From assembly GCA_964458565.1 (NCBI GenBank), contig CAYWJO010000010.1, forward strand, positions 1 to 64,000: a stretch of DNA of 64,000 bases, written 5' to 3'. This stretch comes from an uncultured archaeon. GTDB taxonomy: Archaea > Asgardarchaeota > Thorarchaeia > Thorarchaeales > Thorarchaeaceae. Under the pieces are notes generated by a model. That model was not told the DNA's origin. It ran no database searches and saw nothing but the letters and a program-made list of their open reading frames with translations. The position numbers and the translations under genes are program-made. This document shows positions 50,874 to 53,225 of the stretch, one piece after another (position 1 is the first letter of the stretch; each line of letters opens with the position of its first letter).

Positions 50874-53225
50874 CTAGACCCCGCCTCGCTTCTTTAACAT
50901 TATATCTCTTGCTTCACTATACATGAGATCTGAGAGAACCGTGAACATATCAGCGACACCCTCACCTGTCTTTGCACTGCTCTCCATATAGAGAAAGCCA
51001 TTGCTCTCTGCCCAATCACGAGCTTCCTGCGCGGAAATCATACGGTCTGGTAAATCGGTTTTATTACCTACAACAATTATTGGGACACGATGGCCAACAG
51101 ATTCATCAGCTTCTTCAACCCACTTAACCAGTTCAGCAAATGACCTTCGTCGTGTAACATCAAATACCAGAATAACACCTGCGGCTCCAGAATAGTACAT
51201 CTTTCTCACAGCCTGGAAACGAGCCTGACCTGCTACGTCCCAAACTTGGAGTTTTATCCCGACTGAGTTATCCTGATCTTCGGGGGATATATGAGTAAGC
51301 TTGACTGCGAATTGAGAGCCAATAGTAGTCTTATAATCACGCTCGAAAGTTCCAGTGACATATCGATTTACAAGCGTGGTCTTCCCAACTGCACCCTCTC
51401 CCGTGATCATGCACTTGAATAAGAACATGTAGGCATCATCACTAAGATCAGGATGTTTAGGCTTCTTAGGACGACTACGAATCTCTTCAATTTTGGCACT
51501 CTCAACACTCTCATGCTCATAGACTGGAGGTTCAATAACTGCAGAATCTAATGAAACATCAGAAACAGAATCTGGAATAATATCAGTAGCTGGTGGTGCT
51601 GTTACCATTGGTGCAATATCTTCCTCCTCAGGGAGTGTATGATGACTAATGATTTCACTTGAACTAAAGAGGTCATCCAGAAGTCTTTCAGCTTCACGTA
51701 GAGTTTCGGTTGTCTTATCATCAGTCGGAGCGGCAACTTGTTCAGTCGAAGAGGAGAGTGTTGAAGTTGCATCAACTGAAGTTTCCTTTGCTGGAGCAAA
51801 TAGCGGGGCTACGGTGTCCTCTTGGTCATCCGCCCTGAAGCTTACTGGAGCAAGATGTGCAGGTGCAGCAGTGGTATGGCCCTCTTGCACGAGTATCGCA
51901 GTCTCAGGAGTTGTGACTTGTTTAACAATTCCTTCTTCATCAGTCCACATCAATACAATGGGGCGAATAATGACTGTACCCTCTTCCTTTGGTGTAAGCT
52001 CAATCTCTATACTCTTCTGTTCACTAGGTCCCAAGTCAAATTTAATCTGCTCTGGTACAACATTCATGTTGTCCTTCGGAAACCAGTATATCTTCCCGGT
52101 CACTCCAGAAACTGGTTCCTCAGTCACGTTTCTGAGTGTGAGCCTTCCTCGGAGATTGGACCCTGCTTTAGCTTCTTGGCTAACATCAAATTTAGGAATG
52201 ACATGGTAGAGCCCTTGGATTACCTTGAGGGGACCTCCAGAGACACCGACGAGAACCTCCTTGCGGTCATCGCCGCCAGCGTCACCTACACTTATCGAGA
52301 GAATCTTCGATCCTACATCGACAGTTGCAAGTTGCTTCAAGTCAGCCATATACATATTGTAGTAGATTACCTTATAATCTGATGTGGCAACGATGATCTC
52401 GTCCATGTGATCCGCATTGACTTCTGCCATTCGTACAAACTGCGCATTAATTCCTTCAATCTTCGTGAAAAGGTCAAGTCTGCTTTCTTCATTCCTGAAG
52501 ATTCGAACAGTCCCATCATTGGTTACTACTGCCAGCTCAGACTTACGGTCTCCAAGAACATCACCAGCACCAATAGAGATGACTGGACTTGGCAACGTGA
52601 TTACTTGAACTTCGTCAACGCTGGAGTTCTTAACTTTGAAAACTCTAAGTGTCTTGTCGCGGTTTCCTGTAACTATCTCGTCTACTTCATCACCAATTGT
52701 GTCACATGTACCGATAGTTATTGGCATGTCATCAAGTTTGTGCCTGATATACTCTGTAATCGTGTTTTGGTTATCCATTTTGAAAATCCGGAGTGTAGAG
52801 TCACTTCCACCAGCAAGAATCTCGTTTTTCCCATCACCTGTGATATCAGTCACCTGTACCGTTGTGACGAATCTGTCAACGGGGTATTCACCAAGTAATT
52901 CAAACCGCCCACTCATAGCGTAGCGATACACCTGGAGTGTGCCATCAACGCCTGGAGATTCACTTCCTCCAAGACTGCGCCCAACGATTATTTCCATTTG
53001 ACCGTCATTGTTAGCATCTTCGATTCTTATAGAAAGAATACTTCCCTCAAGTATACATTGTGCAAGCAAACGAATCTCGGCTTGATTGGCATCGTAAAGG
53101 CGTAGCACGCCATCCCTTCCACCTGTACACAATTCGGAGAGACCTGAACCAGTTACGTCGCCTACTGCAATCGCACTTGTGTTTAGGTCATCATCGACCT
53201 CAAAGAGTATTTTTGGTTTTACCAA
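50874..53225 (-). CDS. fusion protein: FG-GAP 7-bladed beta-propeller, Ig-like domain, acidic linker and Rab-like small GTPase
   Basis: Seven D-x-x-(G/N/A)-D-x-x-x-E-(I/L/V)-type repeats; C-terminal GEGAVGKT, YKTTIG, WDVAGQ.RF, YYSGA, GNKTD, ESSAK. Confidence 0.88.
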   Translation of the reverse strand: MVKPKILFEVDDDLNTSAIAVGDVTGSGLSELCTGGRDGVLRLYDANQAEIRLLAQCILEGSILSIRIEDANNDGQMEIIVGRSLGGSESPGVDGTLQVYRYAMSGRFELLGEYPVDRFVTTVQVTDITGDGKNEILAGGSDSTLRIFKMDNQNTITEYIRHKLDDMPITIGTCDTIGDEVDEIVTGNRDKTLRVFKVKNSSVDEVQVITLPSPVISIGAGDVLGDRKSELAVVTNDGTVRIFRNEESRLDLFTKIEGINAQFVRMAEVNADHMDEIIVATSDYKVIYYNMYMADLKQLATVDVGSKILSISVGDAGGDDRKEVLVGVSGGPLKVIQGLYHVIPKFDVSQEAKAGSNLRGRLTLRNVTEEPVSGVTGKIYWFPKDNMNVVPEQIKFDLGPSEQKSIEIELTPKEEGTVIIRPIVLMWTDEEGIVKQVTTPETAILVQEGHTTAAPAHLAPVSFRADDQEDTVAPLFAPAKETSVDATSTLSSSTEQVAAPTDDKTTETLREAERLLDDLFSSSEIISHHTLPEEEDIAPMVTAPPATDIIPDSVSDVSLDSAVIEPPVYEHESVESAKIEEIRSRPKKPKHPDLSDDAYMFLFKCMITGEGAVGKTTLVNRYVTGTFERDYKTTIGSQFAVKLTHISPEDQDNSVGIKLQVWDVAGQARFQAVRKMYYSGAAGVILVFDVTRRRSFAELVKWVEEADESVGHRVPIIVVGNKTDLPDRMISAQEARDWAESNGFLYMESSAKTGEGVADMFTVLSDLMYSEARDIMLKKRGGV

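Follow-up and report, generated by a model that had tools for sequence, protein, structure and literature searches.

We report that a gene in a 64,000-nucleotide (nt) stretch of DNA from an uncultured archaeon of the Thorarchaeaceae (Asgardarchaeota; GenBank assembly GCA_964458565.1, contig CAYWJO010000010.1, positions 1 to 64,000 of the forward strand; the whole stretch is referred to below as the window) almost certainly encodes a single-copy, cytoplasmic, multidomain small GTPase that is specific to Thorarchaeia. In this protein, hereafter the fusion, a beta-propeller of the FG-GAP class and an Ig-like beta-sandwich are joined through a long acidic linker to a Rab-like G domain. Taken as a whole, an explanation that combines this identity with a mechanism, in which the G domain would act as a switch tethered to an N-terminal scaffold, is the one we favor, by a little over even; the mechanistic half on its own is put forward tentatively.

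Domain organization of the fusion

The gene spans positions 50874 to 53225 on the minus strand, the strand to which all coordinates of the fusion refer, and encodes 783 amino acids (aa) followed by a stop codon, with a TTG start at 53225. Direct reading of the sequence placed a Shine-Dalgarno-like site, GGAAGGT (53234 to 53240), 8 nt upstream of the start, and a protein 100% identical to the translation is on record (P0002). From the N- to the C-terminus, the polypeptide comprises a cytoplasmic seven-bladed FG-GAP-class beta-propeller (aa 1-340; 52206 to 53225), supported by Pfam matches, modeling, and fold matches; an Ig-like beta-sandwich (aa 341-452; 51870 to 52205), supported by modeling, fold matches, and a sub-threshold ASH match; a probably disordered acidic linker (aa 453-597; 51435 to 51869); and a Rab-like small GTPase with a basic tail devoid of cysteine (aa 598-783; 50877 to 51434). 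This layout agrees with a first-pass annotation made from the sequence alone, which had announced seven blade motifs, a beta-sandwich behind them, an acidic and proline-rich linker of ~150 aa, and a complete Rab-like G domain. All seven quoted blade motifs were found (at aa 23, 70, 127, 175, 222, 268, and 315), most of them followed by G..D.T(L/V)R(I/V)F; aa 336-458 were modeled as a beta-sandwich by AlphaFold2 from an ortholog alignment (predicted local distance difference test score [pLDDT], 85.4); and the linker measured 145 aa with a net charge of -21. The same annotation had placed the protein in the cytoplasm for want of a signal peptide, and hydropathy bore this out. Neither a signal peptide nor a hydrophobic segment was found in the 783-aa protein using Kyte-Doolittle windows of 19 residues; because the highest 19-residue mean was 1.39 and the N-terminus is polar, we consider the fusion cytoplasmic, and a secreted or membrane protein was ruled out.

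Pfam Ras matched the G domain with 160.4 bits against a cut-off of 21.6, and the motifs G1 (GEGAVGKT, aa 609-616), G3 (DVAGQ, aa 663-667, including Gln667 of switch II), G4 (NKTD, aa 721-724), and G5 (SAK, aa 750-752) are accompanied by a switch I threonine (T633/T634) within YKTTIG. As G1 to G5 and the switch II glutamine were invariant, together with YKTTIG, in 22 aligned orthologs, a dead GTPase was rejected. Motifs of the RabF type are also recognizable (IGSQF, KLQVWDVAGQ, RFQAVR, YYSGA, and LVFDVT). Among solved structures, the best match was the Thorarchaeota Rab 7ezb (E 2.4e-46), followed by Rab14, Rab30, Rab25, and Rab2, and all 60 top matches were Rabs. A C-terminal cysteine for geranylgeranylation was absent from all 22 aligned orthologs; the tail of the query reads MLKKRGGV, so that the ending KKRGGV without a prenylatable cysteine, as initially described, is confirmed. 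Given this lack of a tail cysteine, we describe the GTPase as Rab-like and not as a canonical eukaryotic Rab.

At least 20 Ras-superfamily GTPases are encoded in the host genome, the nearest to the fused domain being a stand-alone protein of 182 aa (49% identity), and stand-alone paralogs of 182-200 aa with 51-56% identity to the fused G domain occur in every Thorarchaeal genome. Other Asgard families gave just E ~1e-46 to 1e-50. Since close paralogs are present in every Thorarchaeal genome and matches are weaker in other Asgard families, the fused G domain is, on sequence grounds, a Thorarchaeia-specific offshoot of an Asgard Rab-like group. Two of the host genome's Ras-superfamily genes (G000:C6:30640-31164 and G000:C2:202443-202814) lie in longer frames, of 415 and 231 aa, respectively, and may be further multidomain GTPases.

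Conservation of the fusion across one Asgard order

When 5.8 billion protein clusters were searched (E<=0.001), relatives of the fusion were found in at least 171 sequence clusters. The 120 matches listed were all full-length (757-826 aa, 59-81% identity), and among those listed with a source name, nearly all are Thorarchaeota "GTP-binding protein" entries. In databases, the family goes by no label other than "WD40 repeat protein" or "GTP-binding protein". Among 1.84 billion representatives searched exhaustively with HMMER, just three clusters had the N-terminal part of the fusion, one of which is P0123, a 781-aa protein with 43% identity and an identical Pfam architecture. Whole genomes were also surveyed using the N-terminal 460 aa as the query (E<=1e-20), thus carrying out the survey across Asgard genomes that the first-pass annotation had called for. 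The architecture proved to be kept throughout the order: its own family has the query region in 77 of 85 genomes and the sister family in its one genome (1/1), and it was found in none of 313 other Asgard genomes. There is one fusion gene per genome, with two draft assemblies holding it in two pieces, and open frames are about 767-826 aa wherever a contig spans the whole gene.

This distribution bears directly on the possibility that two genes had been joined by an assembly or gene-calling artefact, a concern raised in the first-pass annotation in the form of a one-off assembly error. Uninterrupted frames of ~770-800 aa without internal stops are found in ~70 genomes, including complete single-contig assemblies, and with full-length relatives in at least 171 clusters, neither chance nor an assembly artefact can account for the gene, which makes such a joining practically out of the question. 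Furthermore, identity to 21 orthologs was 70% for the propeller, 63% for the Ig sandwich, and 76% for the G domain, compared to 28% for the linker, and P0123 retains 44%, 39%, and 61% identity in the three folded domains, respectively. From its order-wide distribution and these domain-wise identities, the fusion is therefore, as far as sequence comparison can tell, old within the order, with all three folded domains under purifying selection, and no artefact. It is, by the same survey, a lineage-specific invention of one Asgard order and, being so restricted, says little about the origin of coats; the relevance to the origin of coats and of the BBSome that had been suggested for it is not upheld.

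Likeness of the propeller to ITFG2 and BBSome subunits

The blade motifs are spaced mostly 46-48 residues apart, with 57 across the longer second blade, and aa 1-345 were modeled as a closed seven-bladed propeller (pLDDT, 93.8; predicted template modeling score, 0.91; AlphaFold2, ortholog alignment). With seven repeats of ~47-57 aa and a closed propeller in the model, this domain falls within the FG-GAP class of seven-bladed propellers, and it was matched by Pfam FG-GAP_3 (62.9 bits in four stretches) and FG-GAP (29.9 bits). Among the multidomain small GTPases of Asgard archaea, the fusion is one whose propeller is cytoplasmic and of the FG-GAP class.

The first-pass annotation went further, likening the propeller to ITFG2 and BBS proteins, taking the sandwich for a GAE domain, and reading the fusion as a Rosetta stone. 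In that case, the propeller-GAE unit would be a true homolog or forerunner of BBSome/KICSTOR subunits, and the fusion would preserve an ancestral partnership between a coat and its GTPase. Several comparisons speak for such a kinship. The Pfam models Beta-prop_BBS7 (57.5 bits), BBS2_Mid (51.2 bits), and Itfg2 (38.7 bits; cut-off, 27) were all matched above their cut-offs. A single-sequence phmmer search of all solved chains placed ITFG2 at the top (E 2.6e-7, 33.6 bits), with a collinear alignment between aa 6-161 of the propeller and residues 10-168 of ITFG2, and a family profile returned ITFG2 (1.2e-15), BBS7 (1.4e-10), BBS2 (5.5e-9), and BBS1 (2.6e-4), integrins being absent from the top 60 solved chains. 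By shape, Foldseek ranks 1-11 in the PDB were all ITFG2, BBS2, BBS1, or BBS7 (E 2.5e-15 to 7e-12; template modeling [TM] score relative to the query [TMq], 0.69-0.77), and VIA-align, which is independent of Foldseek, ranked BBS2 first (Z 35.4, root mean square deviation 2.1, 296 residues) and ITFG2 second (Z 34.6) among 48,161 chains. The order of propeller and then sandwich is also that of BBS1, whose GAE domain aligned to the sandwich with a Z score of 11.1. Finally, a 2026 preprint reports one structural cluster confined to Asgard archaea plus eukaryotes that carries a BBS7/ITFG2 label and matches an existing catalogue of eukaryote-like proteins (10.64898/2026.10.28.762692), so that BBS/ITFG2-like Asgard propellers as such are already on record. 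As a separate observation, which speaks for the switch and scaffold proposed below, the best solved matches of the propeller (ITFG2, BBS2, BBS1, and BBS7) act in the cytoplasm as scaffolds in partnership with small GTPases.

However, the same likeness was found across FG-GAP proteins at large. The Pfam models for BBS and Itfg2 also accept generic FG-GAP proteins, with 37-59 bits, among them one with a dockerin, secreted proteins, and giants of 2229 and 996 aa. The control that we regard as decisive, P0207, a 385-aa relative with a classical signal peptide, had ITFG2 as its sole solved match at 31 bits (E 1e-6), compared to 33.6 bits for the fusion, and the Helarchaeales propeller P0133 matched BBS2 and ITFG2 no differently from a bacterial hemolysin-related protein; while another control, P0129, gave no solved-structure match at all, P0207 and P0133 undo the apparent specificity for ITFG2. 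Moreover, 2521 clusters matched the propeller in an exhaustive search (E<=0.001), those inspected being prokaryotic FG-GAP proteins, and the top 144 non-orthologs scored 60-122 bits, far above the score of ITFG2. When the ESM Atlas was searched by shape, FG-GAP propellers of bacteria and archaea, some of them with dockerin, TIG, or flagellin domains, reached TM scores of 0.84-0.90 as compared to 0.76-0.77 for ITFG2 and BBS2, two ranges that are not like for like, the former setting model against model and the latter involving solved structures. In VIA-align, BBS2 and ITFG2 stood just ~2 Z units above CIAO1, LGI1, beta'-COP, and integrin alpha-IIb, and thus little above WD40 and integrin propellers. 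A word-indexed profile search reached only orthologs, stand-alone Thorarchaeal propellers, and prokaryotic FG-GAP proteins, with no eukaryotic sequences, and therefore cannot rank BBS/ITFG2 against prokaryotes; a language-model look-up gave scores below 0.9 for mixed VCBS, BBS2, and BBS1 clusters, which serve as leads only.

Because prokaryotic propellers match in shape, prokaryotic sequences score higher, and a secreted control has ITFG2 as its top match, the likeness of the propeller to the BBSome and KICSTOR is real but is a property of the whole FG-GAP-like class and does not imply ancestry. What stood of the ITFG2/BBS-like assignment is that ITFG2, BBS2, BBS1, and BBS7 are the best solved matches; a specific kinship is not supported, P0207 matching ITFG2 equally well. 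Cytoplasmic location is what separates the fusion propeller from most of its class. Asgard single-propeller proteins, with Helarchaeales and Lokiarchaeia names, mostly lack a signal peptide, as does the fusion. Cytoplasmic Loki-type propellers measuring ~500-560 aa or ~375-378 aa (L021:248-1906, minus strand; L023:1251-2756, plus strand; L022:263-1387, minus strand) had Beta-prop_BBS7 as their top Pfam match (78-84 bits versus 44 for FG-GAP_3), and their C-terminal ~200 aa had no Pfam match. One family has these BBS7-like propellers in 48 of its 135 genomes, whereas they were found in none of 14 control genomes; they share 25-27% identity with the fusion propeller (E 1e-18).

Fold and sequence affinities of the Ig-like sandwich

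Foldseek placed the lumenal domains of TRAP-beta at the top of the sandwich matches (E 2e-5, TMq 0.70), followed by BBS9 (E 7e-4) and, further down, by MSP/VAP, CARDB, and complement MG domains, with VAP MSP domains reaching TM scores of just 0.4-0.48. Upon re-alignment, the Z scores were 11.8 for TRAP-beta, 11.1 for the BBS1 GAE domain (residues 483-590), 11.0 for the COPI appendage, 10.9 for a complement C3 MG domain, 10.6 for the transglutaminase C-terminal domain, and 9.9 for the BBS9 GAE domain; the fold matches thus span about two Z units, and the first five lie within 1.2. At the sequence level, ASH was touched by the sandwich of 27 of 32 orthologs at E<=1 (best E 3.7e-5), the query itself scoring 22.1 bits, under the Pfam cut-off of 27. 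Transglut_C was touched by 17 of the 32 and GAE_BBS1 by a single one, at E 0.18, which suggests that the sandwich sequence leans to ASH/Transglut_C and away from GAE. The sandwich is a generic Ig-like domain, at most a candidate for the term "GAE-like", with which the data are compatible. The initial GAE assignment has support insofar as the GAE domains of BBS1 and BBS9 are among the best fold matches, and lacks it insofar as they tie with TRAP-beta, MG, and transglutaminase domains.

This tie with unrelated Ig folds adds to the class-wide scores of the propeller in speaking against a forerunner of BBSome/KICSTOR subunits, as do the lack of the coiled coil, platform, and helical domains of BBS2/7/9 and the 313 other Asgard genomes without the fusion. 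We consider it very improbable that the propeller and sandwich are true homologs or forerunners of these subunits. The same holds for the wider picture, in which the fusion would record an Asgard partnership of cytoplasmic BBS/ITFG2-class propellers and Rab-like GTPases with an ancestry common with the BBSome and KICSTOR, as a GTP-regulated adaptor or proto-coat that might act together with a 333-aa propeller of the same genome (compare ITFG2-KPTN and BBS2-BBS7) and with mu-homology-like proteins. A propeller closer to secreted or generic FG-GAP proteins and a generic sandwich, the outcome that the first-pass annotation had set against its own proposal, is largely what the controls and the shape and sequence scores returned. 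What is left of the Rosetta-stone reading is the architecture, the cytoplasmic location, and a fusion that is not a one-off; a specific BBS/ITFG2 kinship is not supported, the likeness being class-wide. With a likeness at the level of the class and a fusion limited to Thorarchaeia, the protein is silent on the origins of the BBSome and of vesicle coats.

A tethered switch and scaffold as a possible mechanism

We tentatively propose that the fusion combines a tethered switch with a scaffold. The propeller and the Ig sandwich would form a protein-interaction platform, joined by an acidic leash of ~145 residues to a Rab-like G domain that, judging by its motifs, would be catalytically complete. 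The GTP/GDP state would decide where or with which partners the platform engages or, equally, the platform would hold the switch at a fixed site. The protein would then unite in one chain the GTPase and the effector, two roles that eukaryotes assign to separate proteins, as for ARL6 and BBS1 or for a Rab and its effector. How the switch would be coupled to the platform, which partners would be engaged, and whether a membrane would be involved all belong to this tentative part of the explanation.

Several points weigh against this proposal. Communication between the G domain and the platform is a postulate of the model, to which we give somewhat less than an even chance. There is no lipid anchor or clear membrane-binding element in the fusion, and its basic tail is poorly conserved. 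No conserved neighbor points to a partner, the only syntenic genes in 12 loci being those of an unrelated ABC transporter, and Asgard small GTPases in HeLa cells were diffuse, without membrane targeting (PMC10933270). When aa 1-455 and aa 596-783 were co-folded in the presence of GTP and Mg, the score was 0.00, the mark being 0.32, which weighs neither way.

The linker, rich in S, A, D, E, and P, is poorly conserved in sequence, with its length and composition kept among orthologs, and it contains two conserved elements. The first is an amphipathic acidic helix, LREAERLLDDLFSS (aa 509-522; 51660 to 51701; family consensus LKAAExLLDQLFG), with a hydrophobic moment of 0.73 and with A512, E513, L515, L516, L519, and F520 invariant in our alignment A1. 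The second, directly ahead of the G domain, is a basic, proline-rich patch, RSRPKKPKHP (aa 583-592; 51450 to 51479); I582 and R585 are invariant and K588 and P592 at least 90% conserved in the same alignment, and the patch is also kept in the 43%-identical ortholog P0123. Both elements look like short docking motifs.

Possible docking elements in the leash would also suit a different arrangement, in which the propeller and Ig sandwich would regulate the G domain from within the chain (as an exchange factor, a GTPase-activating protein, or an autoinhibitor) instead of serving as an effector platform. The seven-bladed propellers RCC1 and Sec12 are known exchange factors, acting on Ran and Sar1, respectively, and a covalent tether raises the local concentration. 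However, RCC1 and Sec12 were absent among the top sequence and fold matches, and a leash of ~145 residues would be odd for a constitutive in-cis regulator, and we regard this arrangement as unlikely. A role outside trafficking, in which the propeller and Ig sandwich would bind a ligand or polymer and the GTPase output, in signaling or assembly, would be unrelated to membranes, seems to us decidedly unlikely. It would fit the prokaryotic FG-GAP proteins that are the nearest relatives in sequence and shape, the FG-GAP plus Ig-like architectures known in bacteria and other archaea (from the language-model look-up, as leads only), and loops resembling Ca-binding sites, such as DANNDGQME; yet most of these relatives are not cytoplasmic as the fusion is, and the G domain is Rab-like.

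Comparison with known systems

For the G domain of the proposed switch and scaffold, the closest known systems are Thor-Rab (PDB 7EZB/7EZD/7EZE), a member of the same G-domain family solved as a stand-alone protein in a study that does not mention the propeller (Tran et al. 2024, PMC10933270), and the stand-alone Thorarchaeal Rab-like GTPases, with 49-56% identity, the same G1-G5 and RabF-like motifs, and no prenylation cysteine. Thor-Rab and these paralogs are single-domain proteins, whereas the fusion adds ~600 N-terminal residues and a short beta2-beta3 hairpin insert. For the propeller, the best solved match by both sequence and Foldseek (E 2.5e-15, TMq 0.77) is human ITFG2 of KICSTOR (PDB 9O5A chain G, 9V6E chain B), likewise a cytoplasmic seven-bladed FG-GAP-like propeller that is collinear from the N-terminus, yet identity is ~15% and ITFG2, unlike the fusion, has neither an Ig domain nor a GTPase. 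The BBSome subunits BBS1, BBS2, BBS7, and BBS9 (PDB 6VBU, 4V0M, 4YD8) belong to the same propeller class, BBS1 with the same propeller-sandwich order, and are, like the fusion, associated with a small GTPase, as BBS1 binds ARL6-GTP. ARL6, however, is Arf-like and separate, whereas the GTPase of the Thorarchaeal protein is Rab-like and covalently fused, and compared to BBS2/7/9, the sandwich of the fusion precedes just a disordered linker and the G domain. The Pfam models BBS2_N, BBS2_C, and BBS2_GAE did not match the fusion at E<=1, GAE_BBS1 did not rise above noise, and PHTB1_N scored 21 bits, below its cut-off.

Nearest in sequence and shape are prokaryotic FG-GAP/VCBS propellers and Asgard BBS7-like propellers (the Loki-type proteins of ~560 and 378 aa and the Helarchaeales P0133). 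FG-GAP/VCBS relatives are often secreted, very large, or many-repeat proteins, and none among those examined carries an Ig domain and a Rab-like GTPase. The logic of a G domain fused to interaction domains is shared with Rab44/Rab45/CRACR2A, Roco proteins, and Asgard longin-Rag fusions, which differ in their partner domains and have no FG-GAP-class propeller with an Ig domain. According to a preprint by Liu et al., most multidomain eukaryote-like architectures of Asgard archaea are lineage-specific, including GTPases fused to other domains (10.1101/2020.10.19.343400). No description of the propeller-Ig-Rab architecture was found in the literature searched on the Asgard BBSome, Asgard FG-GAP proteins, or Thorarchaeota propellers and small GTPases. 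Asgard archaea are rich in eukaryote-like small GTPases whose effectors are almost unknown; the fusion names a candidate effector domain and, being kept order-wide, offers a single protein suited to the in vitro study of GTP-dependent behavior.

Genomic neighborhood and related genes of the host genome

A divergent ABC transporter (53407 to 56071) lies next to the fusion gene and consists of an ATPase (53407 to 54186, plus strand), a permease (54183 to 55034, minus strand), and an NMT1/THI5-like binding protein (55079 to 56071, minus strand). In all 12 Thorarchaeal loci examined, the ATPase and permease kept their synteny with the fusion gene, probably through relatedness and not through function. 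A recombination operon of 15 genes starts 233 nt downstream of the fusion gene on the same strand (window 47361 to 50640) and constitutes a separate unit; it includes two open reading frames, of 240 and 176 aa, that matched no Pfam model, as well as a RadA-like gene (48411 to 49466) and an XPD-like helicase gene (45408 to 47357). In nine other Thorarchaeal loci for which the downstream gene was recovered, this gene differs from that of the window, and the adjacency of the fusion and the recombination operon therefore looks incidental.

Outside the window, the same genome encodes a stand-alone cytoplasmic propeller of 333 aa (G000:C1:114773-115771, equivalent to L002:1504-2505, plus strand), which matched Pfam Beta-prop_BBS7 (45.5 bits) and BBS2_Mid (32.6 bits). 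Its distribution parallels that of the fusion (81 of 85 genomes of the family, 1/1 in the sister family, and 0 of 313 others); since these genomes are close kin, such co-distribution does not demonstrate a functional link. Against solved structures, the 333-aa propeller gave just weak SF3B3 matches, and a KPTN-like identity is accordingly unsupported. The host genome also encodes a 608-aa protein (G000:C2, L027:4972-6798, minus strand) with DUF11 Ig repeats and an Adap_comp_sub match of 24.2 bits (cut-off, 31.6). This mu-homology-like protein, which adjoins no propeller gene in the host genome, weakly resembles (E ~6e-6) the product of a 331-aa gene (L021:2073-3068) located directly upstream of a Loki-type BBS7-like propeller.

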